The notes beneath the pieces are model-generated. The model ran no database searches, was not told the DNA's origin, and worked only from the letters and a program-made list of their open reading frames with translations. The position numbers and the translations under genes were made by a program. A stretch of DNA of 31,790 bases from a virus (taxonomy: Duplodnaviria; Heunggongvirae; Uroviricota; Caudoviricetes): the IMG/VR virus record IMGVR_UViG_3300008069_000054, positions 1 to 31,790 of that record. One strand, 5' to 3'. The first letter of the stretch is position 1; every line of letters begins with the position of its first letter. Below, piece after piece: positions 4,406 through 28,557 of this stretch.

Positions 4406-4825
4406 TCGTGTTTCCGCTTCGCCGGAGCGCCTTTTCGCGCCATGTGATGAGTTCGGTCAGGCTCATGGGATACAGTTCTGATGGCGGCCAGTGAAATATC
4501 ACTGCCACATCCGCCATCAGGTCATCGACCGAGAGATTTTTCGGAAACGTCACTGCACCGAGTTCGGCGACAAAAAACCGACCACCTTACCGGCCAGCGC
4601 CACAAGGTCAGGCAGTTCCAGTGCGGCGACTTCCTGCTCGGTCAGCATCGGTGCCGTCATGCGCGGCAACACCTTAATCAGTGCATCGACTTCGGAGTTT
4701 GCGACCGCTGCCAGACTGACACCGCGCAGCGTCCCGGCACTGGGTTTCATCAGCGTGACCTGTTCGATAACCTGCTCACCACGTTTGACCGGATTGTCCA
4801 GGGTAATCACATTTTCTTTGTTCAT
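4398..4825 (-). CDS. E': Tail assembly chaperone E+E' (programmed -1 ribosomal frameshift product, 142 aa)
   Basis: Minus-strand heptamer TTTTTTG at about 4571-4577 inside E. The -1 frame continues for 57 codons (VAELGAVTFPKNLSVDDLMADVAVIFHWPPSELYPMSLTELITWREKALRRSGNTNE) and stops at 4398-4400, overlapping the T start codon. 85 + 57 = 142 aa, as in P2 E+E'. Confidence 0.85.
4550..4825 (-). CDS. E: Tail assembly chaperone E
   Basis: 91-aa ORF MNKENVITLDNPVKRGEQVIEQ... in the position of P2 gpE; ends 9 codons after the T6G slippery run. Confidence 0.9.
   Translation of the reverse strand: MNKENVITLDNPVKRGEQVIEQVTLMKPSAGTLRGVSLAAVANSEVDALIKVLPRMTAPMLTEQEVAALELPDLVALAGKVVGFLSPNSVQ
4571..4577 (-). 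other. Slippery heptamer TTTTTTG for the E/E' -1 frameshift
   Basis: Read directly: plus-strand CAAAAAA at 4571-4577 is TTTTTTG on the minus strand, in frame as GGT-TTT-TTG of E. Confidence 0.85.
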
Positions 4826-4881
4826 GGTTTTCTCACTTATGAATCGGGGTTAACCGGTCAGCCAGGCTGACCGGATGAAAA

Positions 4882-5400
4882 TCACAGGCCGATATTGCGG
4901 CGGTGTTGCTCCAGCCGGTCGACGCCGTTCACCTTCTCAATCATGTTGATGGTGTCGATTTCGACCAGCTCCTTACCGTCCATCGTCAGCCGGAAATAGG
5001 TGCAGACCACGGAGATTTTCGACTCGGTGTCTTCTCCCTGTTTACCCTCGCCGGTGTCGATTTCTTTCTGACGTCCACGCATGACCACCTCGACGGCCAC
5101 CGTTTCGCCGGTATCGTCACGCTGGTAAGAGCCTGCAAAACGAATCGGCACAGCATCCACACCGGTTGCGGCGTAAAGCTCCCAGATAACCGAATCCGGG
5201 AAGCCACCCAGCGACCACTCCATTGACAGCGCATCGTCATCAAGGCCGAGGTCTACCGGTGCGCTGCCGTTCATTCCCGCACCGCGATAGTTTTCGAGCT
5301 TACGGGTCAGTTTTGGCAGCGTGACGGACTTTGCAACGCCCTGATAGCTGTAGCCGTTCAGAAAGACGTTCATTAACTTGAGTTTGCGCGGCATTGCCAT
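4882..5400 (-). CDS. FII: Tail tube protein FII
   Basis: 172 aa, same length as P2 gpFII; immediately downstream of FI. Confidence 0.92.
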   Translation of the reverse strand: MAMPRKLKLMNVFLNGYSYQGVAKSVTLPKLTRKLENYRGAGMNGSAPVDLGLDDDALSMEWSLGGFPDSVIWELYAATGVDAVPIRFAGSYQRDDTGETVAVEVVMRGRQKEIDTGEGKQGEDTESKISVVCTYFRLTMDGKELVEIDTINMIEKVNGVDRLEQHRRNIGL

Positions 5401-5412
5401 CGGTCAGGCTCC

Positions 5413-6603
5413 TTAATTGCTGTTAACCGAGGTGACCAGATTTGCCAGGTATTTATCGGTAATACGCTGGCGCAGGGTCAGGTTTTCGAGAGGAGGCACC
5501 GGTGTATAGTCGTAGTCGATATACAGTTTTCCGGCCTTGAGGGTTTCCGCATCATTGGCTTCTTCACTGAACCAGCATGTGCCATCCACGATATAACCGT
5601 TGCTTTTCAGTTCACGGAATTTGGCATTGATGCCGTCAACGATGTCGCGAATCAGCGTTGCGGTGATGGGCTTATCAATAGCCCACATGTGTGCCTCAGC
5701 CATCGTGTCAGCCAGTACCTGCGCGGTGCGTGTGTAGCTTTCAAAGAGGAACAGTGGGTCATCGGAGCAGGTACGGTTACCCCAGAAACGGAAACCGTCG
5801 CGGCGAACCAGCGTTGTGACGCCTGCCTCGTTCAGTAGGTCAGCATCAGTGCCGGACTTCTGCAAATCCCAGAATACAGATGCGCTGATGCCGGTAACAC
5901 CGTTTACCCCGACGTTGGACAGCGTTTTATGCCAGCCCTGCTCCTGGTCGATTTTAGCGCGCAGACCCAGCGCACGGGCGGTGGCATACGCGGTGGCGGT
6001 GGTGCTGGTGACCGTATCCCATGCGAGGAAATCCGGCCAGATGACCATCAGCTCACGCTGGCTGAAATTCTGGCGGTAGGCTTTCACCTCGGAAATGGTT
6101 TTACAGCCCCATGCACTGATATACCCGAATGCATTCAGTTCCTGGCATACCGATGCCAGTGCGACGGCAACCTCTTTGGTGTCCAGCCCCGGCACACCAA
6201 GAATGCGCGGTTTAACGCCGGTAACCGACTCAGCCCCCATCAGGGCTTTCAGTCCGGTGTACTGACCGTTTTCGTCAGTGGTGCCGATGATATTGGAAAC
6301 GGTCTGCGCGAGTTTCGTTTCCTCGTCGTCGCCGGTGCCGTCTTCCACACGCACGACAACGGTGACCGGTTTTGACTGGTCGGCGATGGCCTGCAACGAT
6401 GCCGCTAGCGTGCCTTTTTTACCAGCCTTTGCAATTGCGCTCTGCACATTGGTAATCAGCACCGGTTTATTGAGGGGGAAGGTTTCCGCATCCGCATCGC
6501 TGGCCGTGCAGACCATGCCGACAATGGCAGTGGATACGGTGGAAATGACGCGGGTGCCGTCGTTAATCTCCAGCACCTGCACGCCGTGATGATAGTCACT
6601 CAT
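5413..6603 (-). CDS. FI: Contractile tail sheath protein FI
   Basis: 396 aa, same length as P2 gpFI; position and sheath-like sequence. Confidence 0.93.
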   Translation of the reverse strand: MSDYHHGVQVLEINDGTRVISTVSTAIVGMVCTASDADAETFPLNKPVLITNVQSAIAKAGKKGTLAASLQAIADQSKPVTVVVRVEDGTGDDEETKLAQTVSNIIGTTDENGQYTGLKALMGAESVTGVKPRILGVPGLDTKEVAVALASVCQELNAFGYISAWGCKTISEVKAYRQNFSQRELMVIWPDFLAWDTVTSTTATAYATARALGLRAKIDQEQGWHKTLSNVGVNGVTGISASVFWDLQKSGTDADLLNEAGVTTLVRRDGFRFWGNRTCSDDPLFLFESYTRTAQVLADTMAEAHMWAIDKPITATLIRDIVDGINAKFRELKSNGYIVDGTCWFSEEANDAETLKAGKLYIDYDYTPVPPLENLTLRQRITDKYLANLVTSVNSN

Positions 6604-6696
6604 CCGTTTAACTCCGTGGTTAATGGGTGCAACTATTGTCTGTTGGGCAGTGCATGAGACGCTATTTGACCTGACTGGTCAGTGGATGAAACAACA

Positions 6697-6727
6697 GATA
6701 AAGAAAAGGCGGGCAATCAGCCCGCCT
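6697..6727 (-). terminator. Rho-independent terminator downstream of the hotspot cargo gene
   Basis: GC-rich inverted repeat GGCGGGC-aatca-GCCCGCC (about 6708-6726) followed on the minus strand by TTTTCTTTATCTGTTGTTT. Confidence 0.6.
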
Positions 6728-7037
6728 GCCTTGATTTGTACTCACTCAGTTTCCAACTGACAATTTACGTAGCCAAAACGCTATCAGCTCTGACAGCCAG
6801 CTTTGAGCGAGTCGAAAAAGTTCATACCTTTCTGCTGGTGAAAGTTTAACTAACAGTTCAACCTATCAATTAATTGATGAACAGGTTGAGGCGTTTTTAA
6901 TATCTCTGCGTCATCTGAGACGATTTTGCGCTACAGGATTTACGGCTTATCTGGGGGCATTCTTGAGCCCTGACTCCTCTGAAAACATAATTAGGCCATA
7001 CCTGTGACCTGCTCTTCGTTGGTAAGGTTAGCGAATA

Positions 7038-8147
7038 TTAATCTGAGTCCATTTTCCCAAACTCTGTCAGGCCGAAAACGGAGCTACCAGAAACATGAGC
7101 TTGTAAGCCCGCTTCCTGCATTTCACTCAATTCAACTTCCTGGCTATCCTCTAATCCGATAGAGAACATGGGATAGGCCCAGTTCCAATTCGGATCAGGA
7201 ACCAAACTATTATTCTCTATCTTGAAAAAGCTGACCATGAGATGATGCCTTCCCTGTATCGCCTCTTCATCATTGATGTTGACCAGTACACCAAAGTGCT
7301 TGTAGCCGGCTTGTCCATTCTCGAACATTTTTATCTTGGTGCCGTTTCTGAACATCCAAAAAGAATGATTTCCAGTGGAATCAGCGACCTGCAAGTTATC
7401 TTCGTCAATTTCCCAATTAAGATATTGTTTGATATCAGACTTTGGTTTGAGTTTTTCGTCATTACTAAACCATTGTATTGCCGGAAGTGGAAGGTGAAGA
7501 CCTTCCGGCTGGGGAGGCTGACCTGCAGCAATGGAATGCATGATCTCTGTCATTGATGGAAGCCCCATCAAATGCCATACATCATGGATATCCTTTTTAA
7601 GTATAAGAAGCCCTTTGGATACACCATCCGCGTAAGTTGACTTTAAGCGGACTAGTATGTCCTTGTTACCATCTTTGTCGAGGTCTTCAATGTTTACTGA
7701 AGAAGCCACAACCTCGTCGTCCCCTGCGTCTGGGATGATTGCCCAATACCCAATATCGTAGAATCCAGGTCTGCCAACCACCTTATCTATCAAACTCTGT
7801 CCAGAGGGCTCGAAGACCATCAGGAAACGGCTAAGGGCACCATTTGTGCTCACAGCTCTTCCGTAGACTACAACGGAGTTTGAGGTGCTTAGATCGAGAG
7901 ACTCTCTAGCCACTGAGTCAAACGCCACTGAGTCCAAATGTGTGGCAAGCTGCTGCTGGATGCACTCCCGAGCCATTTCAACTAATTTTTCGCGAACATC
8001 AGCAGATCGTATTGGCTGTGAAGTGAAATGGAAAAGCCCTACTGTAGCCGCTATGCCTATTATTCCCGAAATAACGGTACTTAGAACCTGCTCCTTTACC
8101 ACTTTCACAACTTTCATCAATAGCTTCTTCAACTTCACTTCAGGCAC
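7038..8147 (-). CDS. Hypothetical membrane-anchored protein (hotspot cargo at the P2 Z/fun position); candidate defence gene
   Basis: 369-aa ORF with one predicted N-terminal transmembrane helix (VLSTVISGIIGIAATVGLF) and a large soluble domain containing a DxDxDG-like motif (DLDKDGNKD). The region is visibly AT-rich compared with flanking tail genes, and the gene has its own flanking hairpins. The supplied ORF starts at GTG (8147); a more likely start is the ATG at 8117, preceded by AAGAAG. No family recognised. Confidence 0.7.
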   Translation of the reverse strand: MPEVKLKKLLMKVVKVVKEQVLSTVISGIIGIAATVGLFHFTSQPIRSADVREKLVEMARECIQQQLATHLDSVAFDSVARESLDLSTSNSVVVYGRAVSTNGALSRFLMVFEPSGQSLIDKVVGRPGFYDIGYWAIIPDAGDDEVVASSVNIEDLDKDGNKDILVRLKSTYADGVSKGLLILKKDIHDVWHLMGLPSMTEIMHSIAAGQPPQPEGLHLPLPAIQWFSNDEKLKPKSDIKQYLNWEIDEDNLQVADSTGNHSFWMFRNGTKIKMFENGQAGYKHFGVLVNINDEEAIQGRHHLMVSFFKIENNSLVPDPNWNWAYPMFSIGLEDSQEVELSEMQEAGLQAHVSGSSVFGLTEFGKMDSD

Positions 8148-8445
8148 CTAAATACTATTAAACTTGTCATGGGAAAATCCGATTATTATTGTAGAGAACA
8201 ACAAAAACTGGCCTCGATTTTAGAGTTTTTCCAGTATCTATTTTCCGACTCGTTCGGCGGTAATCCACCGTTATATTCATGAGGCCGGGGTGCACTATAA
8301 TATTCAACTATATACTCTGTTTGTAGTGGCACATTAAATTTGGTGACAGATATGCATCACGTCCGCTCCTAGCACAGAGCGGACAGTCAGATTAGGTTTT
8401 ACTCTGTGCCATAGATGAGTAATCTCACACCAGAGCTAATACGAT

Positions 8446-9024
8446 TTATTGCGGCATTTCTGGCCATTCTATATCCGGAGCATTTTCCGGCTGAACGCGA
8501 TTCAGTAGCACACGGTATTTTTTCCAGTGTGTCAGGCTTAACTTTTCTTCCTCGGTAGCCATATCTAAATCGACAGCATCCTGCAGCGTGGCAATAATTT
8601 CACCTGCATATGCAATCTGCTCTTTCTTCTGAGACTCCGCCGCTCTGACAAGCGCATCACGTTCTGCATTCTCATCATTCACCCACGCATTTCCGTCCCA
8701 TTTCTGATAATCCCCCTCCGGGGAAATAGCTGTCACGTCTGGAGGTAATACGCCAAGTTCAGAAATATAAATGGCTGCTCCTGTTTTCGTTTCGTAGACG
8801 GTCTTTCCGCGATGGTCTTCCATCAGTTCCCATTTCATTTCATCTGCATTGAAAACGGCTGCATAACCAGCAGGAATATCAGGTGGTGCAATATCTGTAC
8901 TGTTTGCAGGCAGGCCAGTATACGGCGGAATATATGCATCACTTTCGCCAATAAACTCATTGGTTCCATTAAGTAAATTGAAAACGCGGATAGTTTGTGC
9001 TTCTGCACTCATTCTGAAAGCCAT
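8446..9024 (-). CDS. G: Tail fibre assembly chaperone G
   Basis: 192-aa ORF directly downstream of H with a 1-nt ATGA overlap; tail-fibre-assembly-like sequence; position of P2 gpG. Confidence 0.8.
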
Positions 9025-11642
9025 TATGCAAGCCTCACAATATAGTTAAATGCGATGTTTTTGACGGTGTTTTCTGTATTACCTGTAGCATTAACGGTAA
9101 TAGAGTGCCCGTGTGAGCCAATAGCAACCGTATGTGAATGTGCACCAATACCAACCGTATGATTATGTGCACCAATATCTACCGTGTGGGCATGATTCCC
9201 GGCAGCTCCTGATGTGCCATTAAACGATGGGTTGTCAAAGCCTGTTTTACCGGTTTCACCATTAGTATTGGCATTCCCTCTGTAAATGGTATGTGTATGG
9301 TTACCAGTGGTATTAGTGGTTTTTGTTCCGTAGTTAAACGTACTGACTGTCTTCGTCCCGTAATCAAACGAACTGGTTGTTTTCGTTCCCAAATCCGTAT
9401 TTGACGCACTGGCGCTGTGAGTATGCGATTTAATCCCGTCCTGTTCCTGTGACAATACAGCACGCCCACTGGCGGGTTTGCCCTTGATTGTCCAACCGCG
9501 CATATCCGGAATAACACCAGAAGGATAGGCTATAGCCAGTTTCGGATATGCTGCCTTATCAAACGTCTGCCCCTGCATAATTGCATAGCCTGCAGGTGGT
9601 GTATCTGATGGCCACGGCAGCGGAACACCTGGCGGAAACGCTTCAATATTTGCCGAGCCGTCAAATTTTACGCCGTTAATTGTCCTTGCCGTTTTCAGCT
9701 TTGTTGCTGTAGCCGCATTGCCGGACAGTTCGCCTGAAAGACCACCGCTGAATGTCTGTTTCGCCGCCCATGTCTGAGCTTCGTCAATAATTGGCACACG
9801 TCTTGTCGTGATCGTGCGGCTTCCCGGATTTCCTGAAATACGCACCATAAAAAAGCGGTAGTTCGCTTTACTTACAGTGCTGCGCCATACATGCATTGAG
9901 CGCCCCGTACCGGAATCATCACTCGGACCAACTGCGATGTTTATCAGGTTGCCATCAATGACGCCCCAGTCCATACCGTCGGGAATGTTGGTCATGTTAT
10001 CAAGCCGAACGGTTATCAGACTGCCCGGCACAAAGTCGTAGGTCTGCCAGTCCAGGCTAGTGAGCTTTGCCACAGCACCGCCGATACCCAGATTCAGGGG
10101 AAGTGAATACGAGGTGTAGACTTCCCGCCATTCGCTCCACGAACTGCCGGTATAGACGCGCTCAAACGTGCGACCTTTCGTTGTCGTTCCTGTCCCTGTA
10201 GTGGTATAGCGTTGCAATACAGCAACGTAATCAAAACGTCTGATAACCTCTAACACCCCTAGTAGTGTTGCACCAGATGAATCCAGCAATGGACCATTGG
10301 TTGCTTTACCCGTCACACTGTAAATACCAGGGTCGGTTAGATCATTCAAATCACCGTCATAAAAGCTGCTTGCAGTCTGGCTGCCAATTCTCAGCCACGG
10401 TTCCCACTGTGGGTTTGATGCATCCCAGTTTGCAGCAAGGCAGCGGACATACATGTTCCCACGGCGAGTGGTATAACGCTGGGTATAACTGAATCCACCA
10501 CCTTTCATAACTTCAAGCACTCCCTGCGCGTAACTACCAGCTTCGGGATAGTGCAACGCAAGAGAAGCTAACGTACTGGAACTGTTTCTCCATGTACCCA
10601 GGTTATCCTCCCCGGCCAGAAAATCGAGATCCATACTGTCATCCAGCGTTCTGGCCGTCCCCTGAACGTTACGCCATACGCTCCACGGACCATCTTTGCC
10701 GTTCCATTTAGCCGTCAGGTGGCGAATATAAGTATTTCCATTGCGAACAGTGTAACGCTGTGTTCCGTTAAAATTTCCTGCTGCAAATACTTCCAGGACA
10801 CCAACGGCATTCTCTTCCGGGAAGTGTTTGGCTATCTGTGCATTAGTCGAAGTGCCTTTTGACCATGTACCCAGATAAGCTTTAACGGGACCAAATGTAT
10901 TCAGATCAGCATCAACCGGCATTTCGCCGTTGTTTTTCATAAACGTCAGGCTGGTAACGCCAACATTGTCCAGAAAAGCGCCCTTATCTGGAATATCGCC
11001 ACCGTTCTGGTCTTTCTGCAGACGTTTCTCAGCATTGTCATAGGCTGCTTTTACTGCCTTTGGCGTTGCCGCCAGCTTTTCACTGGTGCTGTTTGTTGCA
11101 CTGCTTAACTGAGTAAAACCTTTTTCTGTCAGTGTGGCGTCAGGATGGCGGCGGGACTGCTCATGCTCTGCGATTTTGTCATCGACGTAATCCTGCGTCG
11201 CCATCACTGTGCTGGCATCAATACTCAGCTCAACGGACGCCACGTTGCTGAGAATAATAACCATGCGGCAGGTCTGCGCACGTCCGGAGCCTTCAGCCAG
11301 TTCTGGCTTATAGCTTTCTGCCATGTTGGATACCGCAATCAGTGTTCCGGCATCGTCATACAGACCCAGCTCACGCATCCAGAAGCCGCCCACTTCGGGC
11401 GGTACAACCAGTTCAGCCACGATATAGTTTTTATTCTTATTATCCACGCTGACTTTATTCAGAGCGTGACGCCAGACCTCATGCACCAGTTTCGTCTGAC
11501 CGGCATCCGGCACCGGCAATTTGCCATTACCGTCACCCACGGCCATTGCAGACAGGTTTACTTTTTTCCCGCCGGGGACAGTGGCGGCTGCCAGCTTTGC
11601 GGCTCCGGCAGTAGTGATAACGGTTTTAAATTTCGTGCTCAT
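9024..11642 (-). CDS. H: Tail fibre protein H (mosaic: P2-like N-terminus, three internal ~85-aa repeats, His-rich GxHxH tip domain)
   Basis: 872 aa; N-terminus [20 protein letters not shown]... is P2 gpH-like. Residues about 250-510 contain three tandem repeats (GVLEV...QRYT.R.GN.Y.R...W). C-terminus carries GNHTHTI / [36 protein letters not shown] repeats. Confidence 0.9.
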
Positions 11643-20508: not shown

Positions 20509-22281
20509 ATGACCATCACCACAGACACCACTCTTTTACACGACCCGCGTCGTCAGGCGGCGCTGCTGTACTGGCAGGGGTTTTCCGTGCCGCAGATTGC
20601 CGCCATGTTGCAGATGAAACGCCCGACGGTGCAGAGCTGGAAACAGCGCGACGGCTGGGACAGCGTTGCCCCCATCAGCCGTGTCGAAATGAGTCTGGAA
20701 GCGCGGCTGACCCAGCTCATTATCAAACCGCAGAAAACCGGCGGTGACTTCAAGGAAATTGACCTGCTCGGACGCCAGATTGAACGACTGGCACGGGTAA
20801 ACCGCTACAGCCAGACCGGCAACGAGGCAGACCTTAATCCGAACGTCGCTAACCGCAACAAAGGCGGGCGGCGCAAACCGAAAAAGAATTTTTTCAGTGA
20901 CGAGGCTATCGAAAAGCTGGAGCAGATTTTCTTTGAGCAGTCTTTCGACTATCAGTTGCACTGGTATCGCGCCGGGCTTGAGCACCGCATCCGCGATATC
21001 CTGAAATCCCGCCAGATTGGCGCGACATTTTATTTTTCCCGCGAGGCGCTGCTGCGCGCCCTGAAAACCGGTCATAACCAGATTTTTCTGTCGGCCAGTA
21101 AAACGCAGGCGTATGTGTTCCGTGAATACATCATCGCCTTTGCCCGTCTGGTTGACGTTGACCTGACCGGTGACCCGATTGTCCTGGGCAATAACGGCGC
21201 AAAACTGATTTTTCTCGGCACCAACTCCAACACCGCACAGAGCCATAACGGTGACCTGTACGTCGACGAGATTTTCTGGATCCCAAATTTTCAGGTTCTG
21301 CGTAAGGTGGCATCAGGTATGGCCTCACAGAGTCACCTGCGCTCGACCTATTTCTCCACCCCGTCCACACTGGCGCACGACGCCTACCCGTTCTGGTCGG
21401 GTGAACTGTTCAACCGGGGACGCGCCAGCGCCGCCGAACGTGTGGAAATCGACGTCAGTCATAACGCCCTTGCCGGTGGGCTTCTCTGTGCGGACGGCCA
21501 GTGGCGGCAGATTGTCACCATTGAGGACGCCCTGAAAGGTGGCTGCACACTGTTCGACATTGAGCAGCTCAAACGCGAAAACAGCGCCGACGATTTTAAA
21601 AACCTGTTCATGTGTGAATTTGTTGACGACAAGGCATCGGTGTTCCCGTTCGAGGAGCTGCAACGCTGCATGGTCGACACGCTGGAAGAATGGGAAGACT
21701 ATGCACCGTTTGCCGCCAATCCGTTCGGCTCCCGCCCGGTATGGATTGGTTACGACCCGTCACACCGTGGCGACAGCGCCGGATGCGTGGTGCTGGCACC
21801 GCCGGTGGTGGCCGGTGGCAAATTCAGGATACTTGAGCGTCACCAGTGGAAAGGCATGGACTTTGCCACCCAGGCTGAATCCATCCGCAAACTCACCGAA
21901 AAATATAACGTCGAATACATCGGTATTGATGCCACCGGCCTCGGTGTCGGCGTGTTCCAGCTCGTGCGCTCGTTCTATCCCGCCGCGCGCGATATCCGCT
22001 ACACACCGGAAATGAAAACCGCAATGGTGCTCAAGGCAAAAGACGTTATCCGCCGTGGCTGTCTGGAATATGACGTCAGCGCCACCGACATCACCAGCTC
22101 GTTTATGGCTATCCGCAAGACCATGACCAGCAGCGGACGCAGCGCCACCTATGAGGCCAGTCGCAGCGAGGAAGCCAGCCACGCCGACCTCGCCTGGGCG
22201 ACCATGCACGCCCTGTTAAATGAGCCACTCACCGCCGGTATCAGCACCCCGCTGACATCCACCATTCTGGAGTTTTACTGA
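20509..22281 (+). CDS. P: Terminase ATPase (large) subunit P
   Basis: From the internal Met MTITTDTTLLHDPRRQAALLYWQGFSVPQIAAM... the protein is 590 aa, matching P2 gpP; the supplied ORF begins 10 codons upstream. Confidence 0.92.
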   Translation: MTITTDTTLLHDPRRQAALLYWQGFSVPQIAAMLQMKRPTVQSWKQRDGWDSVAPISRVEMSLEARLTQLIIKPQKTGGDFKEIDLLGRQIERLARVNRYSQTGNEADLNPNVANRNKGGRRKPKKNFFSDEAIEKLEQIFFEQSFDYQLHWYRAGLEHRIRDILKSRQIGATFYFSREALLRALKTGHNQIFLSASKTQAYVFREYIIAFARLVDVDLTGDPIVLGNNGAKLIFLGTNSNTAQSHNGDLYVDEIFWIPNFQVLRKVASGMASQSHLRSTYFSTPSTLAHDAYPFWSGELFNRGRASAAERVEIDVSHNALAGGLLCADGQWRQIVTIEDALKGGCTLFDIEQLKRENSADDFKNLFMCEFVDDKASVFPFEELQRCMVDTLEEWEDYAPFAANPFGSRPVWIGYDPSHRGDSAGCVVLAPPVVAGGKFRILERHQWKGMDFATQAESIRKLTEKYNVEYIGIDATGLGVGVFQLVRSFYPAARDIRYTPEMKTAMVLKAKDVIRRGCLEYDVSATDITSSFMAIRKTMTSSGRSATYEASRSEEASHADLAWATMHALLNEPLTAGISTPLTSTILEFY

Positions 22282-23315
22282 TGAGCAAGAAAAAAGGGAA
22301 AACACCGCAACCTGCGGTGAAAACAATGACCGCCAGCGCCCCGAAAATGGAGGCATTCACCTTTGGTGAGCCGGTGCCGGTACTCGACCGCCGTGACATT
22401 CTGGATTACGTCGAGTGCATCAGTAACGGCAGATGGTATGAGCCACCGGTCAGCTTTACCGGTCTGGCAAAAAGCCTGCGTGCTGCCGTACATCACAGCT
22501 CACCGATTTACGTCAAACGTAATATTCTGGCTTCAACGTTTATTCCGCACCCGTGGCTTTCCCAGCAGGATTTCAGCCGCTTTGTGCTGGATTTTCTGGT
22601 GTTCGGTAATGCGTTTCTGGAAAAGCGTTACAGCACCACCGGTAAGGTCATCAGACTGGAAACCTCACCGGCAAAATATACCCGCCGTGGCGTGGAAGAG
22701 GATGTTTACTGGTGGGTGCCGTCCTTCCATGAGCCGACACCTTTCGCGCCCGGCTCCGTGTTTCACCTGCTGGAGCCGGATATTAATCAGGAGCTGTACG
22801 GTCTGCCGGAATATCTCAGCGCCCTTAACTCTGCCTGGCTGAATGAATCAGCCACGCTGTTCCGCCGCAAGTATTACGAAAACGGCGCTCATGCCGGATA
22901 CATCATGTACGTCACTGATGCCGTGCAGGATCGCAACGATATCGAAATGCTCCGCGAAAACATGGTTAAGTCAAAAGGCCGCAACAACTTTAAAAACCTG
23001 TTTCTCTATGCCCCACAGGGAAAAGCCGACGGCATTAAAATTATCCCGCTCAGTGAAGTGGCGACGAAGGACGATTTTTTTAATATCAAAAAAGCCAGTG
23101 CCGCAGACCTGCTGGACGCGCACCGCATCCCCTTTCAGTTGATGGGCGGCAAGCCGGAGAACGTCGGGTCGCTGGGTGATATTGAGAAAGTGGCAAAGGT
23201 CTTTGTCCGCAATGAGCTTATCCCGTTACAGGACAGGATCCGCGAGATAAACGGCTGGCTCGGTCAGGAGGTCATCCGCTTTAAAAACTACTCACTGGAC
23301 ACTGACAACGGCTGA
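22281..23315 (+). CDS. Q: Portal (capsid vertex) protein Q
   Basis: 344 aa, same length as P2 gpQ; start overlaps the P stop (TGATG). Confidence 0.93.
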   Translation: MSKKKGKTPQPAVKTMTASAPKMEAFTFGEPVPVLDRRDILDYVECISNGRWYEPPVSFTGLAKSLRAAVHHSSPIYVKRNILASTFIPHPWLSQQDFSRFVLDFLVFGNAFLEKRYSTTGKVIRLETSPAKYTRRGVEEDVYWWVPSFHEPTPFAPGSVFHLLEPDINQELYGLPEYLSALNSAWLNESATLFRRKYYENGAHAGYIMYVTDAVQDRNDIEMLRENMVKSKGRNNFKNLFLYAPQGKADGIKIIPLSEVATKDDFFNIKKASAADLLDAHRIPFQLMGGKPENVGSLGDIEKVAKVFVRNELIPLQDRIREINGWLGQEVIRFKNYSLDTDNG

Positions 23316-23318
23316 ACA

Positions 23319-23342
23319 TCGCCGCCTGCGGGCGGCTTTTTT
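23319..23342 (+). terminator. Rho-independent terminator of the P-Q operon
   Basis: GCCGCC-tgcg-GGCGGC hairpin at about 23321-23336 followed by TTTTTT, starting 6 nt after the Q stop. Confidence 0.75.
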
Positions 23343-23448
23343 ACAGCCCGTCATCACGCCCTCACACACTCACCACCGCACAATCTAAACGCCATCACGA
23401 CGCGCTCAGACGCTGAAAAAATAAAATCAGCACCACCGCCAGCGCGCA

Positions 23449-23467
23449 GTGCTTTCCCCGCCTCGCC
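23449..23467. other. cos cohesive-end site (19-nt core)
   Basis: Plus-strand GTGCTTTCCCCGCCTCGCC is the reverse complement of GGCGAGGCGGGGAAAGCAC, which I recall as the P2 19-nt cohesive end. It lies in the ORF-free interval next to Q, as cos does in P2. From memory, not searched. Confidence 0.6.
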
Positions 23468-23586
23468 CGCCCGCTTCGTGGGACGATTTTAATGCAGTTG
23501 CCCGCATTAGCTGAATCCGCGCCAGAACAGACATTATGGATATGTCAATACGAACTTATTGACGTGCAAAATCATGCAATCAAGCG

Positions 23587-23613
23587 CAAAAAAAACCGCC
23601 TTCAAAGAGGCGG
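23587..23613 (-). terminator. Rho-independent terminator downstream of the kinase-HIRAN gene
   Basis: Hairpin ACCGCCT-tcaaag-AGGCGGT followed on the minus strand by a run of eight T (plus-strand A8 at about 23587-23594), about 20 nt after the stop of the 547-aa ORF. Confidence 0.8.
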
Positions 23614-23632
23614 TTTATGTTATCCCATTGGA

Positions 23633-25276
23633 TTAAGATCTACATTCAACTAAAAGGTACACTAATGGACGTTCTGGCGTCCCATTCTTCTTTGCAACAA
23701 AAGCAGATATTTTGTGTTTTGCTATTTTTTGCTTGAGTTTTTTACATAACACTTTGTTTATATAACCAAGTTTCCCGCTCTCATGAACAACAGCTATAGC
23801 ATGTGGATCAACCGGGTTATCCTCTTCAGGAACAAGCTTGACCAAATCACCGACCATTACTTTCGACAAATCAAGCCCTTCCTGATAACGAGTTCCTGCC
23901 ACTTCAAAAAGAAGCTCACCTTCACTATTAAGAATTTCTGGATCTGGCACCAAACAAAAACCATCGCCAGGTGATTTTGCTCCTGTATATCCTAACAGCG
24001 CAAAATCAGAGCCTTCAAATGGATGGGGGAGCAAATGTTGAGCCAGATACTCAGCAAAGTCTTTTCTTTTCCGTGGTGGTAAACGCCGAACAAACGGGTC
24101 AAGCACGTTGTTCGTATGTTCTTCACTTTTCAGACTAAATGCGGGATGTCCTGCAAACCCTTTCTCTTGGGCTTTAGCATAATCTTCTGACTGAAAATGG
24201 TATGTGAAGACGTAGTTATCCCCTTGCTGACGATCAATCTGACCAACAACATAACGAGTACCGCCTGTGGGTGGCTGCCATGTAAGAAGCAACCGAGTAG
24301 GCTCCATTATTCTGTTTATAGTACGCATATTTAGAATCAGTGATAACCTTAGGTATCTACGCCTCAATAAACGAATCGTCCAATCCGCTCGTTCCCTAGT
24401 GAACGGCACATCGGAGCTAATTTCGCAAAGTGAATCTATCTTGTCGACCAGTTCCTGAAAATCAAATTCAAGTCTCCGGGCCAAGTACGCTTTTGACTGC
24501 TCATCAAGAGCCAAATCCTGTATAGAAGAAATATGACCTAATCGTTCATGCGTGTCTGCCCGATTCTTCCGCAAATGATGACAACCACGCTGTATGTATT
24601 CATCTACATTTTGATGGTTCCATCCTCTGATCCTCTCTACATACCTTTCATGCCCCAAACTAGTACCATTATCGAAATATGGTGCGAGATATCCCTTCAC
24701 TTTAGGTGGCGTTATGCCTGGTGCAGATTCAGGTACAAAAACAAAACCCCAATTCTCTTGGTGTCTATCACTATTACCGATGAGCGCATCAAAAAGCAGC
24801 ATATCGTAAAGCCATTGGATCCAGTCTGGAGAGATCAGGCCGCGGATACTAAAAGCCCTACAAATTAAGCGTAGATCAACAAGGTTATGGTGTCTTCCGG
24901 AAGAGTCATCAAAATCCGATATCAACACATGAAAAAAATCAGACGCATGAACAAATAACTGGCTACTTTGATCGTAAAACCACTCAAGCAAAGCTCCATA
25001 TTCGTATTCACCGTTCTCCATCATTCTTCGCGCTGGCAATGCTTTAGGAACAGGAACGCCCATAACATCTCCAACTATATAAGCAACGGTTTCCATCCAG
25101 TACTGATCGGGATAAGCATCTCTTGAGAGTTTAAAAAGATAAGGCCATTCCGGTTTTATCCCCTCAGGAGCATCATTCGGTGACCAAAGCATTTTTTTAT
25201 CCCTCGCTCCTCGAGGAAAAATGCCATGCTCATCATCTTTACGCCAACTAGTTACATCTATTAAATTGATATCCAT
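23633..25276 (-). CDS. HipA-like Ser/Thr protein kinase fused to a C-terminal HIRAN domain (hotspot cargo; candidate defence or abortive-infection effector)
   Basis: 547-aa ORF. The motif LLFDALIGNSDRHQENWGF matches the HipA/CtkA-family catalytic loop (GNxDRHxxN). The C-terminal approximately 90 aa (GTRYQEGLDLSKVMVGDLVKLVPEEDNPVDPHAIAVVHESGKLGYINKV) matches the HIRAN pattern (G.ry...G..v.L..E..NpyDpnAi.V.....lGY). Strongly AT-rich DNA (about one third GC in hand-counted stretches). Replaces tin/old of P2. Confidence 0.7.
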   Translation of the reverse strand: MDINLIDVTSWRKDDEHGIFPRGARDKKMLWSPNDAPEGIKPEWPYLFKLSRDAYPDQYWMETVAYIVGDVMGVPVPKALPARRMMENGEYEYGALLEWFYDQSSQLFVHASDFFHVLISDFDDSSGRHHNLVDLRLICRAFSIRGLISPDWIQWLYDMLLFDALIGNSDRHQENWGFVFVPESAPGITPPKVKGYLAPYFDNGTSLGHERYVERIRGWNHQNVDEYIQRGCHHLRKNRADTHERLGHISSIQDLALDEQSKAYLARRLEFDFQELVDKIDSLCEISSDVPFTRERADWTIRLLRRRYLRLSLILNMRTINRIMEPTRLLLTWQPPTGGTRYVVGQIDRQQGDNYVFTYHFQSEDYAKAQEKGFAGHPAFSLKSEEHTNNVLDPFVRRLPPRKRKDFAEYLAQHLLPHPFEGSDFALLGYTGAKSPGDGFCLVPDPEILNSEGELLFEVAGTRYQEGLDLSKVMVGDLVKLVPEEDNPVDPHAIAVVHESGKLGYINKVLCKKLKQKIAKHKISAFVAKKNGTPERPLVYLLVECRS

Positions 25277-25285
25277 ATCTTACGG

Positions 25286-25837
25286 TTACCCAGCTAATGC
25301 ACGGAAAGCAGCACTAACATAAGCTACCTGAAACTTTGCATCTCGAAGCGCATGATGCGCATCAGTAACATTAATGGAAAAATTTGCCCTTACATCAATA
25401 TTCTTAAGGCTTTTAGCTAGTTCAACGATGGTACGCACGTCTCGATCATTTCGAAAACGCCATGGGATATTTTGCGCATGTTTACGGTAAACCGCTGCCA
25501 ATATAGCGTTATCAAAGCTTGCCCCATTCCCCCAAACTTGTACGTCATCGTTACTACGACTTCGTACAAATAGAGAAAATTCTTGTAAGGCTTCATGTAA
25601 GTCAACAGCAGACGGGTCATTAAAAACCGCCCTTGCAGAATCGCTTTGTATCATCCACCACTGTAAAGTTTTTGGGTCTACAAAACTATTTTCCAATGCA
25701 GATGATAGGGTTATAACTCTATAAAACTCATCCCCACACTTGCCAGTCAGAGGCTCAAAGAACACAGCGCCGATTGAAATCAAAGGAGCATCCATTGACA
25801 CACCTAATGTTTCTATATCGAGCATTAAATTATTCAT
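25286..25837 (-). CDS. DEDDh-type (DnaQ-like) 3'-5' exonuclease
   Basis: 183-aa ORF starting MNNLMLDIETLGV... (Exo I motif D-x-E), with HHALRDA near the C-terminus (Exo III H-x4-D, DEDDh subtype). It lies 9 nt upstream of the kinase-HIRAN gene on the same strand (operon). AT-rich. Confidence 0.7.
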   Translation of the reverse strand: MNNLMLDIETLGVSMDAPLISIGAVFFEPLTGKCGDEFYRVITLSSALENSFVDPKTLQWWMIQSDSARAVFNDPSAVDLHEALQEFSLFVRSRSNDDVQVWGNGASFDNAILAAVYRKHAQNIPWRFRNDRDVRTIVELAKSLKNIDVRANFSINVTDAHHALRDAKFQVAYVSAAFRALAG

Positions 25838-25906
25838 TTAACCTCCACCCCAGACATAGCTCAGGGAAACGTAACCTATTGAAATAACGAATCAAGTATT
25901 TGTCAC

Positions 25907-25934
25907 ATTCTATACTAAAACATTCGAATTCCAA
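25907..25934 (-). promoter_or_regulatory. Candidate sigma70 promoter for the exonuclease/kinase operon
   Basis: Minus-strand TTGGAA, 16-nt spacer, TAGAAT about 70 nt upstream of the exonuclease ATG. An alternative weaker promoter (TTCAAA ... TATACA) overlaps the LexA box itself. Assigned by eye only. Confidence 0.35.
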
Positions 25935-25977
25935 AACTTCAGCTTTTGCAACCCCTTACAAGTCAATTGATCCATAA

Positions 25978-25997
25978 TACTGTATACATACACAGTA
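25978..25997. promoter_or_regulatory. LexA box (SOS box) upstream of the cargo operon
   Basis: TACTGTATACATACACAGTA read directly; CTGT-N8-ACAG is perfect and 18 of 20 positions match the E. coli LexA consensus TACTGTATATATATACAGTA. Lies between the A stop (26016) and the exonuclease start (25837). Confidence 0.75.
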
Positions 25998-26015
25998 CTA
26001 CATTTGAAAAACAAA

Positions 26016-28292
26016 TCAAGGGAAATCATTAAAACCCGGCCAATCACAACAAGGCGGATAAACAAATTTTTTCATGTCATAAATAACTTCTGCCCCACGA
26101 GCCAGCGCCTCAAGCTCCCATCTCTGAGGCCTGATACCGTTCTGAGCAAGGTCAACGCGGATACGGGTGATTTGCAATCGTTCAGACCGGGTCAGTCTGG
26201 CCGATGGTGCAATTTCATGCGGTTTTAACGGGCTTCCGTTTCTTTGCTGACGGTTTGGTCTTCTCAGGCCGTATTTTAATGCACCTCTGAGCGCCCTCAC
26301 GACCTCCGGGTCATTCCATTCGATAACACCGTCATCAACCAGATTAAGCACTGCTGCGGCGTGCTCAGAAGGTGTGGGAGCCAGTAACGAAGTATCACCA
26401 CCGGTGAGCTTTCCACAGTTATTGACAGGACTCCGAGGCGCGGCGATGCCGCTTTTTAAAGTCAAAGGCTCAACGACCGGAACTTTCGGCACAATGCGCC
26501 AGTCCGTCGTTCTGGTGATATGAATATGACGCGCGCCGAGATGCGGCGCGTAAATGCCGACCACTCTCTCGACTTCTTCCTCGTACTCGTTAACGTCATC
26601 CGACAGACTACGGGCGACCCTGACAGTCTGACAATCGCGCGGGACATTTGCCCCGCCCTGCGCGCTGATATACAGCGCAAAATCACCACTGTCTGCGGCG
26701 GCGCGTGCAGCCTCGACGCGCTCGTCAAACTCATCAGCAATGCTGACGCCGCGAGGCAATTTGCGTAGTTCACGGTAAGCCCCCATTGTCGGCAGGCCAA
26801 CCGTTTTAAATTGCGGAATGCGCCACGTTGACGCCCATGCGGTAACAGCCGCGGCAGTATCTTTCAGCGGTCTGCCGGTATCGTTATCGAGCTGCCCATC
26901 CAGTGCATAGCCGTCGATATTTTTTGAGATGTATTTCGCGATATACCCCGCAGCACCGCCCCGATTAAGATGTTTTGCCTGAAAACGGTTTCGCGCGGCT
27001 CCTCTTTCGTCGCCATCCTCTTTGAGCGCATAGCGACGCATGATTTCGATAATCTGGTTACGCTGGCGTGGATTACAAAAAAGCATCATATGCCAGTGCG
27101 GCGTTCCGTCGTGGTGTGGCTCGACGACTCGCAAACCGTAGACCTGTAAATCATTATCCTTGAATGCCGTGCGCATCAGGCTCCAGATACGGCAGAGATA
27201 ACGCTGCGCATCCTTTGGATTAAATGCCTCATCGTTCCAGCCGTGATTAAGCTGAACGGTTTTACTTTCGCCTTTTCCGACCTGACGTGTCGGGTGATAC
27301 TTTGACGGCGCGGTCAGCGTGATAAACATCCCCACATCACCCTCTGCGGCGGCGTAACGCTCAATACCGGCAATGGTGTTCATCAGCTCCATCCGGCGAA
27401 TTTCAGGATTAGAAATACTGCCCATCACCTTACTGATAAGGTCGATGCGCTCGCCGGTTTCCCTGTTTTCAAGGTCACACGATTTAAGAAATTCCAGATT
27501 TGCCTGGCGGCGCGCACGCACATCACGAATGGCGTGTTTACTGGCATAAGGAGAACGGTCTTTATTGACCTCCCCGACAGCTATCAGTAACGCCTCATGC
27601 CAGCGCATACGCTGGCCTTTAAGCTGATGAGTCCACCACTCATCGTTAAACAGGCGGGCAATGGCAGAATATGCCTGCCTCGTGGTCATCTGTCCTTTAC
27701 GGTATTTTTTCCAGTAGAGCGGGGAAATATTGAAAGCACGTGCAGCGCCAGCAACATGACCATACAGGTGAGCCTGCGCCTCATCCGTAAACAGCGATTC
27801 TTTTTCACCATGCGCATCAACCCATGCATCGCAGAGTTCCTCATACATCATGAAAAGCTGCGATGAGATACGGGCGGCAAACTTTTTCAGCTCCTTGTCA
27901 TTCATTCCCGGCAGGCGCGCATAGTGGTCACGCTCTGCCAGAAACAGCAACGACGCGTCGGTGTTCATTTCATGGCGCTGATTCACACGCTCAATGCGCG
28001 GCCATAAACGACGCTGAAAAGTAGATGTGAGGAAATAAAATCCGTGCACCGGGCTTTTATTGCGCCGGATGTAGTCATAGCGTGAAGTAAACAGCGAGCG
28101 CAAAAAGTAAGGCAGGCGATTAATCGTGGATAAAACACCTTGCACCTGACGCATCTCGTCACGTGTAAGGGGTCTTTCGCGCCCGACAGCCTCGCGTGGC
28201 GCGTTCCATGCATAAGCACCGGTAAACGTCTTACCGGTGCCTGCGGCAAATGCTGACGGAGGGACAAAACGCCCGGAGGCTTTAACGGCCAT
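26016..28292 (-). CDS. A: Replication initiation protein A (rolling-circle nickase)
   Basis: Translation from the internal Met MAVKASGRFVPPSAFAAGTGK... is near-identical over most of its length to P2 gpA as I recall it; the supplied ORF extends 14 codons upstream. C-terminal residues differ from P2. Confidence 0.92.
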   Translation of the reverse strand: MAVKASGRFVPPSAFAAGTGKTFTGAYAWNAPREAVGRERPLTRDEMRQVQGVLSTINRLPYFLRSLFTSRYDYIRRNKSPVHGFYFLTSTFQRRLWPRIERVNQRHEMNTDASLLFLAERDHYARLPGMNDKELKKFAARISSQLFMMYEELCDAWVDAHGEKESLFTDEAQAHLYGHVAGAARAFNISPLYWKKYRKGQMTTRQAYSAIARLFNDEWWTHQLKGQRMRWHEALLIAVGEVNKDRSPYASKHAIRDVRARRQANLEFLKSCDLENRETGERIDLISKVMGSISNPEIRRMELMNTIAGIERYAAAEGDVGMFITLTAPSKYHPTRQVGKGESKTVQLNHGWNDEAFNPKDAQRYLCRIWSLMRTAFKDNDLQVYGLRVVEPHHDGTPHWHMMLFCNPRQRNQIIEIMRRYALKEDGDERGAARNRFQAKHLNRGGAAGYIAKYISKNIDGYALDGQLDNDTGRPLKDTAAAVTAWASTWRIPQFKTVGLPTMGAYRELRKLPRGVSIADEFDERVEAARAAADSGDFALYISAQGGANVPRDCQTVRVARSLSDDVNEYEEEVERVVGIYAPHLGARHIHITRTTDWRIVPKVPVVEPLTLKSGIAAPRSPVNNCGKLTGGDTSLLAPTPSEHAAAVLNLVDDGVIEWNDPEVVRALRGALKYGLRRPNRQQRNGSPLKPHEIAPSARLTRSERLQITRIRVDLAQNGIRPQRWELEALARGAEVIYDMKKFVYPPCCDWPGFNDFP

Positions 28293-28557
28293 ATGAGCCA
28301 AAAGCCTCTGAAAAACGCTTGCTGAGTTGCTCAACCTGCGCGTTTAAATCAGCAAAAGACTTTGCGCTTCCGGTCAGAATATCGTGATGCATCAGGCCGG
28401 AAACGAGCTGGCTTAATTTCGGGTAATAACCAACCACCGCCAGCCATTCCTGACCGGCGTTTTTACCGCTTTCCGCTCTCTTTTTCTCGTGGAGAATAAA
28501 CTGAAAGCTGTCACTGGTAACGACATAACGTTCGCCAATTTCAATACGAATACTCAT
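28282..28557 (-). CDS. Hypothetical protein (P2 orf83 position)
   Basis: 91-aa ORF immediately upstream of A, in the early operon. Confidence 0.65.
   Translation of the reverse strand: MSIRIEIGERYVVTSDSFQFILHEKKRAESGKNAGQEWLAVVGYYPKLSQLVSGLMHHDILTGSAKSFADLNAQVEQLSKRFSEAFGSYGR

Follow-up and report, generated by a model that had tools for sequence, protein, structure and literature searches.

Why would a prophage whose repressor is not SOS-cleavable carry two genes behind a LexA box, and what might those genes do? The question is raised by a locus in a 31,790-nucleotide stretch of DNA, here called the window, that makes up IMG/VR virus record IMGVR_UViG_3300008069_000054 (Caudoviricetes). The locus encodes an exonuclease (exo) and, downstream of it, a HipA-like kinase with a HIRAN domain (hipL). 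We conclude that exo-hipL is a horizontally acquired operon, inserted at the A/Q hotspot of a P2-like phage and furnished with its own LexA operator and its own terminator, and we hold this anatomy and the linkage to LexA with high confidence. How the two products might work together is a more tentative matter, which is weighed below against several other explanations.

The open reading frame (ORF) list gave two genes in the same orientation on the minus strand, separated by 9 nt, with the exonuclease reading 25837..25286 and the kinase 25276..23633. They are flanked by gene A (26016-28334; Phage_GPA, E value 3e-124) and the portal gene (22281-23315), and because these two genes bracket the operon, its position is that of the old/tin (A/Q) hotspot of P2, between gene A and the portal gene Q and adjoining cos, where P2 itself holds orf91, tin and old. 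A reading made from the letters of the window alone (the sequence-only reading) had claimed an AT-rich two-gene operon at 23633-25837 in this hotspot, with a strong terminator behind it. The ORFs and the neighbouring genes bear this out, as does the GC content, which is 0.39-0.45 over 23501-26000 against 0.51-0.57 in the flanks. The left limit of the cargo was set by other P2-like phages, which match the query only at window positions 23400-23501. The terminator lies where it was expected, its hairpin starting 17 nt past the kinase stop codon and its stem being followed by the T-run TTTTTGCGCT. The claim that the P2-type C repressor is not SOS-cleavable also held, since the immunity region encodes a 97-amino acid repressor with a helix-turn-helix (HTH) domain only, along with Cox and an integrase; the immunity is thus P2-type, with a non-cleavable C repressor. 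The features of the operon are the following.

23502..26015, no strand: cargo segment, approximate limits, between the cos-proximal backbone and the end of gene A
26014..26019, minus strand: putative -35 element TTGATT of the LexA-controlled promoter, overlapping the TGA stop codon of gene A (26018-26016)
25978..25997, no strand: LexA box, reading TACTGTGTATGTATACAGTA on the minus strand, the first six bases of which, TACTGT (25997-25992), are the putative -10 element
25838..25977, minus strand: 5' leader of 140 nt, with a second sigma-70-like element and a GGAGG ribosome-binding site (promoter scan)
25286..25837, minus strand: exo, encoding a predicted DEDDh 3'-5' exonuclease of 183 amino acids, Rv2179c/T4-DexA family (Pfam PF16473, phrog_255, invariant catalytic residues)
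23633..25276, minus strand: hipL, start codon through stop codon, encoding a three-domain kinase of 547 amino acids (ORF and AlphaFold model)
24332..25276, minus strand: HipL kinase core, about residues 1-315, HipA/CtkA-like, with the loop GNSDRHQEN and the Mg-binding motif FDNGTS
23957..24304, minus strand: HipS-like domain, about residues 325-440, the counterpart of N-subdomain 1 in HipA (Couple_hipA)
23636..23920, minus strand: HIRAN domain, about residues 453-547 (Pfam HIRAN, structure matches)
23593..23616, minus strand (reading 23616-23593): intrinsic terminator that ends the operon, a 9-bp stem with five G-C pairs and a 6-nt loop

The LexA box TACTGTATACATACACAGTA (25978-25997), which the sequence-only reading had called near-consensus, agrees with the consensus at 18 of 20 positions and forms a CTGT-N8-ACAG palindrome. 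No other such site occurs in the window, and 100 shuffles gave none. Read from the coding strand, TTGATT stands upstream of TACTGT with a spacing of 16 nt, and on sequence grounds the pair is a putative LexA-controlled promoter. The bases of the spacer diverge in the leaders of three homologous loci (L001, L081 and L083; Serratia, Proteus and one other genome), but the -35 element, the spacing and the box are all kept there. Further downstream, a block of the leader running from GTTTTGGAATT to TAGTATAGAAT is nearly invariant across four homologous leaders. A 21-codon leader ORF starting near 25974 was dismissed as it is not conserved in L001, and a scan of 23300-26300 against Rfam, at E values up to 1, returned two chance-level matches only and no known RNA element in the leader. 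We also considered that the leader and box might belong to the P2 backbone and rejected this, because among 5426 E. coli genomes the leader (25838-26020) turns up in 61, and only in company with the module. LexA boxes were lacking from seven Peduovirus hotspots that hold other cargo.

A scan of species-representative genomes for kinase-HIRAN loci returned 80 loci, and together with closer homologues these allowed the conservation of the operon and of its box to be followed. Exonuclease and kinase are paired in 13 distinct loci, where the synteny is kept from 100% down to 54% identity of HipL and the spacing of the two genes varies between an overlap of 17 nt and a gap of 18 nt. Pairs sit in gene A/portal hotspots of P2-like prophages, in Escherichia, Serratia, Proteus, Yersinia, Klebsiella, Pantoea and one further genome, and once the pair was found in a Proteus chromosome (L090) beside ahpCF, outside any prophage. 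Twelve of the 13 loci, the non-prophage one included, have a LexA box 100-700 nt upstream. Both the pairing and a box ahead of it are conserved across the Enterobacterales. Across the 1.07 Mb of fetched loci, 16 boxes scored at least 16/20, and 14 of these are the ones upstream of exo-hipL. One of the other two is a strong box in Pseudomonas sp. PDM18 (L021, 8062-8081), about 400 nt beyond a split hipIN pair and beside a 169-amino acid gene on the opposite strand.

At least four unrelated types of leader carry the boxes, and in the types that were read by eye the boxes overlap the -10 or the -35 element:

Type 1, the type of the window: the box contains the -10 element
Type 2, the second E. 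coli allele: the box overlaps the -35 element of an extended -10 promoter (by-eye reading)
Type 3, the non-prophage Proteus locus L090: a geometry similar to that of the second E. coli allele (by-eye reading)
Type 4: the box is followed by a gene of 54-62 amino acids, in some loci then by dinI, and then by exo-hipL

In E. coli, the second allele (L101-L103; exo 4001-4555, hipL 4565-6205) also lies in P2-like hotspots and encodes an exonuclease 58% identical to that of the window. Its leader is unrelated, and there, read by eye, the box TACTGTATTTTTGTACAGCA overlaps the -35 element of the extended -10 promoter TGTTATAAT. Since boxes recur in unrelated leaders and are lacking from the seven hotspots with other cargo, the SOS linkage is a specific and recurrent property of the module. 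Of the three functions that the sequence-only reading had offered (defence, addiction and an SOS-induced fitness function), it is the last, an SOS-linked function, that gains support from the conserved boxes, as far as sequence can speak to it.

Comparison with phage 186 suggests where this arrangement may have its counterpart. The SOS operon of 186 (p95-tum-orf97) likewise lies directly after gene A, in the same orientation and with a terminator before cos, and its annotated SOS promoter, p95, has the -10 element TACTGT as the first six bases of an 18/20 LexA box. The 186 operon differs in carrying the tum antirepressor with its DinI-like domain, of which the window has none (no such ORF in 25838-26015), and orf97 is replaced here by the exo-hipL cargo in a phage with P2-type C/Cox immunity. 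With such immunity the SOS response cannot induce the prophage by the 186 route. P2-type phages, which are not SOS-inducible, can therefore still carry a 186-style SOS operon with a different cargo. Leader type 4 is itself a 186-style SOS operon, with exo-hipL at the position of orf97. The three small genes of this type that were scanned all match phrog_8554 and phrog_1993, and that of L085 also matches the N-terminal part of phrog_189 (annotated DinI, like the 186 tum products), so that box, small gene and dinI together resemble the 186 tum SOS operon in a split form. The loci with a box and a small gene are L085 (3029-3193), L089 (3069-3239), L092 (3082-3267), L087 (2845-3278) and L003 (about 4840-5250). 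The 186 orf97 product was also tried as a possible relative of HipL and rejected, the hhalign probability being 1.7%; orf97 has no Pfam domain.

The exonuclease had been described in the sequence-only reading as a DnaQ-like, proofreading-type DEDDh enzyme of 183 amino acids. The length and the DEDDh assignment stood, while the type proved to be that of Rv2179c and T4 DexA: the protein matches the Pfam Rv2179c-like family PF16473 over profile positions 1-176 of 177 (E value 6.8e-57, 192 bits) and phrog_255, "exonuclease" (E value 1e-62). The DEDDh residues D7, E9, D109, H161 and D166 are invariant among 12 orthologues. The sole solved relative by sequence is 8kel/8ken (E value 1.7e-5), with no other structure at E <=0.01, and 8kel is T4 DexA (PMC12153337). 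We conclude that the exonuclease belongs, as an intact DEDDh enzyme, to the T4-DexA/Rv2179c family, with a predicted 3'-5' activity. It shares with T4 DexA, with the E. coli enzyme EcD ("HREX", PMC12153337) and with PF16473 the common DEDDh fold family, all of the catalytic residues and the association of members with phages. Unlike T4 DexA, to which it is only distantly similar, it is in an operon with a kinase. EcD is a plasmid-borne E. coli homologue of DexA that protects against T4 by digesting DNA containing 5-hydroxymethylcytosine (PMC12153337). That the exonuclease of the window might be this published defence enzyme was rejected, since the EcD cloning primer encodes the N terminus MIDTE, against MNNLML here. 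In a PADLOC scan the exonuclease matched only a CRISPR-associated DEDDh profile and, weakly, an exonuclease "Effector" profile, and a scan of NCBIfam gave no usable assignment for either protein. Homologues below about 50% identity are ordinary phage genes in other contexts, without HipL.

For the kinase, the description of a 547-amino acid HipA-like protein with a C-terminal HIRAN domain was upheld by profile searches, by an AlphaFold model and by Foldseek, although a HipS-like domain (Couple_hipA) between the two had been missed. The kinase loop IGNSDRHQEN is at residues 166-175. Pfam HIRAN matched residues 453-525 (41.2 bits, cut-off 24.7, E value 1.4e-10) and Couple_hipA residues 343-437 (26.7 bits, cut-off 22.5), while the match to HipA_C at residues 23-206 (25.8 bits) is under its cut-off of 30.5. 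The PADLOC profiles PDC-M03A and PDC-M03B matched residues 4-308 (E value 3.8e-31) and 325-545 (E value 1e-30), respectively, the HipS-like domain being the N-terminal half of the latter match. A profile comparison with solved structures matched the kinase core to CtkA (3akj, E value 1.3e-9) and the HIRAN domain to lp_0118 (3k2y). The AlphaFold model, built with 69 homologues, had a predicted local distance difference test score of 91.8 and a predicted template modelling (TM) score of 0.91. Used as a Foldseek query it retrieved CtkA (2.5e-11) as well as HipA and HipT (7ab3-7ab5, 8ezs), and the C terminus matched the HIRAN domain of HLTF (4s0n) with a target TM-score of 0.58. The kinase residues K49, D170, H172, N175 and D202 are invariant in 69 sequences, as are, in the HIRAN domain, G461, T462, R463 and Y464 (GTRY) and N487, D490 and A493 (N..D..A).

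Residues 1-28 of HipL, which include the Gly-rich loop, are conserved in all homologues, with D7, W11, D14, G23, R25 and K27 invariant. The start is therefore M1 (ATG at 25276) and not M29. Within 25193-25276, M29, the start given in Table S2B of Rousset et al., has the better-looking ribosome-binding site, GAGGGA.

HipA-type kinases are textbook persistence toxins, and HIRAN, known from fork remodelling in eukaryotes, is a domain that reads the 3' ends of DNA. In HipBST, the HipS protein neutralises the HipT kinase. We conclude that in HipL a HipI-type kinase and its partner HipN, itself made up of the HipS-like and HIRAN domains, are fused into a single chain. Among the 80 kinase-HIRAN loci the fused kinase is confined to the three closest, and nearly all of the other 77 are split hipI and hipN pairs in which the HipS-like domain is part of a separate gene product (HipN). 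An exonuclease of the PF16473-type family was found by tblastn and profile hidden Markov model (HMM) only in the four closest loci, one of which is a split locus of Shewanella. For the remaining 76 loci no adjoining exonuclease was found by tblastn or by a profile HMM built from 120 homologues. An Aeromonas salmonicida P2-like prophage (L091, 3292-5617) has a fused HipL of 41% identity without an exonuclease. The exonuclease is thus an accessory that joined one clade of kinase-HIRAN systems and has been tightly linked to it since. The Aeromonas hipL lies 25 nt downstream of a gene for an HTH plus Peptidase_S24 (CI/LexA-like) repressor and upstream of the integrase, and is probably co-transcribed with this lysogeny repressor.

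How much of this had already been described? The sequence-only reading had not recognised the pair as a named system, and in this it did not hold: the kinase is HipL, its halves are PDC-M03, and the operon has been cloned as pFR108, so that the pair was already catalogued. The observation is thus confirmed and its first interpretation partly supported, for a gene pair that is catalogued and a kinase family that is already named. The HipL family was defined by sequence analysis only and described as monocistronic (Gerdes, Baerentsen and Brodersen 2021, mBio, PMC8262856), with the proposal that HIRAN senses phage DNA ends in abortive infection and that regulation is HipS-like. HipL of the window has the published domain order (PMC8262856): the kinase core, which has the catalytic motifs and lacks N-subdomain 1, is followed in the same polypeptide by a HipS-like domain and this in turn by HIRAN at the C terminus. 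It also agrees in having split hipI and hipN as its closest relatives and in the logic proposed for it, the release of a growth-arresting kinase by sensing of DNA ends. It departs from the published description in operon structure, since here and in all close relatives hipL is the second gene, after the exonuclease on the same strand and behind the LexA box. The description of HipL as monocistronic is thereby corrected. We found no experimental study of HipL or hipIN in the literature, and no paper noting a LexA link of exo-hipL.

PADLOC returned no named, validated system for the pair, and for the kinase only PDC-M03, in which A is HipA-like and B is HipS-HIRAN. Both profiles match here in one fused ORF, whereas PDC-M03 is a two-gene, unvalidated candidate without an exonuclease component. 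Rousset et al. 2022 (PMC9122126) cloned the operon from E. coli TA255 as pFR108, "Exonuclease + HipA" (Table S2B), and named the arrangement "DUF5051 + HIRAN" (Table S5). The exonuclease of pFR108 is identical to that of the window and so is the kinase over the portion shown, which is annotated from M29 (PMC9122126). The insert extended from the end of gene A as far as that of the portal gene, in a low-copy vector with its native promoter (PMC9122126), and therefore included the LexA box. It is listed among the "additional tested systems" of Table S2B, the validated ones being in Table S2A, after challenge with an eight-phage panel in MG1655; three of the eight additional P2 systems were reported active, none of them pFR108 (PMC9122126). 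That paper does not discuss the LexA box, the HipS-like domain or the conservation across genera. What appears to be new is the conserved LexA control, the obligate partnership with the exonuclease in one clade, and a layout homologous to that of the 186 SOS operon.

Two further systems invite comparison. Like HipBST, exo-hipL has a kinase core without N-subdomain 1, which is supplied by a HipS-type module (separate in HipBST), and Foldseek matches HipT. Unlike HipBST, it has no HipB HTH regulator, its HipS-like module is joined to the kinase in cis and carries HIRAN as an extension, and the Gly-rich loop of HipL, GARDK, has no serine at the autophosphorylation positions. No adjacent HipB-like HTH antitoxin or autorepressor was found among the ORFs or by Pfam and NCBIfam, the only partner gene being the exonuclease. 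In Gram-positive bacteria, small DEDD exonucleases called diDNases adjoin genes with HipA and HIRAN domains on mobile elements (PMC11706625). These form a separate, novel DEDD subfamily in other taxa with no reported LexA link, while the exonuclease of the window matched only the T4 DexA structure.

We propose, with somewhat less than even confidence in the whole, that exo-hipL is an SOS-induced kinase switch gated by DNA 3' ends, in which the exonuclease trims the ligand. LexA would repress a promoter of the p95 type whose -10 element, TACTGT, lies inside the box, so that DNA damage would raise expression, as sequence and the analogy with 186 suggest. A second, conserved promoter-like element in the leader may provide basal expression. 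By analogy with the way HipS holds HipT in HipBST, the HipS-like domain would hold HipL inactive in cis until HIRAN bound free 3'-OH DNA ends or short oligonucleotides, whereupon the kinase would be released. The kinase would then phosphorylate an essential target and arrest growth, the target perhaps being an aminoacyl-tRNA synthetase as with HipA and HipT. The exonuclease, by removing the same 3' ends, might set the threshold of activation or reset the switch, and the simplest reason for its linkage to HipL would be that both recognise a free 3' end. A LexA-controlled fusion of a HipA-type kinase to HIRAN would directly link the SOS response with kinase-mediated growth arrest.

For the role of such a switch we lean tentatively towards a DNA-damage-linked function, either the tolerance or persistence of a lysogen that is unable to escape by induction, or the exclusion of phages present during the SOS response, with interference against SOS-induced prophages; this preference rests on the negative plaque screen and on the peculiar SOS control. 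A more specific version, which we consider speculative and rather improbable, is that of a prophage SOS checkpoint: damage would derepress the HIRAN-gated kinase, DNA left unrepaired would lead to translation arrest and thereby to tolerance of DNA-damaging antibiotics or to a block on co-resident SOS-induced prophages, and the exonuclease would clear the 3'-end signal much as ring nucleases do. Ring nucleases clear cyclic-oligoadenylate signals. If this checkpoint were real, the Gram-positive pairing of a DEDD nuclease with HipA and HIRAN would reflect a general design of end sensor and signal eraser.

Several observations weigh against an SOS-induced switch of this kind. Between the box and exo there is a second promoter-like element, TTGGAA-16 nt-TAGAAT (25934-25907), which is likewise conserved and which LexA, when bound at the box, would leave free; some basal expression from it is likely, and expression may be partly constitutive. 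Nearly all of the remaining 76 kinase-HIRAN loci, as split hipIN pairs, have neither an exonuclease nor a LexA box, so that the exonuclease is not needed for the core switch. The split three-gene form of exo-hipL in Shewanella also has no LexA box. In six loci the box stands directly before the small gene resembling the Tum N terminus, with or without dinI, and not before exo, co-transcription being assumed. The last of these points and the downstream promoter-like element would equally be accounted for if the box were a relic of a 186-type tum/dinI SOS operon, with exo-hipL transcribed from the downstream element or by read-through from gene A. We think this improbable, since the window has no tum or dinI and yet keeps an 18/20 box with its -35 element at a fixed spacing amid diverged bases, and the unrelated leaders of L101 and L090 also have the box overlapping core promoter elements. 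A relic would fit the loci with small Tum-like genes and not the three leader types in which the box overlaps a promoter next to exo.

The most serious competitor for the function is conventional abortive infection, in which HIRAN would sense phage DNA ends and the kinase would stop translation, the LexA box keeping a toxic system quiet until damage associated with infection. The A/Q hotspot is rich in validated defence systems (PMC9122126; PMC9519451), HipL corresponds in both its halves to PADLOC's candidate PDC-M03, the same hypothesis was put forward in 2021 (PMC8262856), and orf97 of phage 186, at the same position in its SOS operon, blocks infection by 186. Set against this, PDC-M03 is itself unvalidated, and pFR108, with its native promoter, did not reach the list of systems validated on the eight-phage panel (PMC9122126). 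The absence of LexA boxes beside the seven other cargos indicates that SOS control is peculiar to exo-hipL and no habit of hotspot defence. The negative result has its limits, since the clone carried the LexA box and the panel comprised eight phages; it would be explicable if the native promoter were largely LexA-repressed, or if the trigger were DNA damage and not the phages tested. The defence hypothesis of the sequence-only reading is therefore weakened, and part of what that reading had named as grounds for refuting it has come about, its idea of DNA-end sensing and abortive infection being in any case already published (PMC8262856), and we regard abortive infection as unlikely, though it deserves to be kept in view. 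A variant in which the exonuclease is the antiviral effector, degrading modified or linear phage DNA from 3' ends with HipL as a second-line arrest arm or as a sensor of degradation products, can draw on the invariant DEDDh residues, on membership in the family of T4 DexA (8kel) and on the precedent of EcD against T4 (PMC12153337). It has little probability in our view, given that EcD is a different protein by its N terminus, that pFR108 stayed among the non-validated systems, and that the more distant homologues are ordinary phage genes unaccompanied by HipL. Least convincing is a toxin-antitoxin addiction module with the exonuclease as antitoxin of the kinase. A small upstream gene tightly coupled across 9 nt would suit it, and HipA-family kinases are classical toxins (PMC8262856). 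The HipS-like domain, the expected neutraliser, is however part of HipL itself; HipL in Aeromonas and the 76 kinase-HIRAN loci, nearly all split hipIN, do without any exonuclease; a purely steric antitoxin would have no need of an invariant DEDDh active site; and there is no HipB-type HTH autoregulator. The exonuclease as antidote, an idea of the sequence-only reading, is thus unlikely, and the addiction module as a whole highly so.

Yersinia phage GMG73 and Escherichia phage 899 both have the 2.7-kb region at 100% identity, and 61 of 5426 complete E. coli genomes (about 1%), many of them from human clinical isolates, have it at >=99%, so that the operon is borne both by E. coli and by infectious P2-like phages. 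In the phage phiCDKH02 of Clostridioides (PP767789.1, 1559-2587), adjacent genes encode a HIRAN protein and a HipA protein with 26% identity to HipL, which indicates that phages carry the kinase-HIRAN module beyond the Proteobacteria as well. In L081 (1791-2772) the same A/Q hotspot also holds, directly upstream of exo-hipL, a Gp49/HTH pair (HigBA-like) and a SymE toxin gene; SymE in E. coli is an SOS-induced toxin.

The window also contains a second AT-rich cargo, at 6500-9500 (GC content 0.42-0.49), in the position of the Z/fun hotspot of P2. Its ORF 7038-8147 on the minus strand encodes 369 amino acids and matched only phrog_15038, of unknown function, with no match in Pfam or PADLOC. The cargo is flanked by a tail-fibre assembly gene (8446-9024; Caudo_TAP) and by a 396-amino acid ORF (5413-6603), which by position only is the tail sheath gene FI expected from the gene order of P2.

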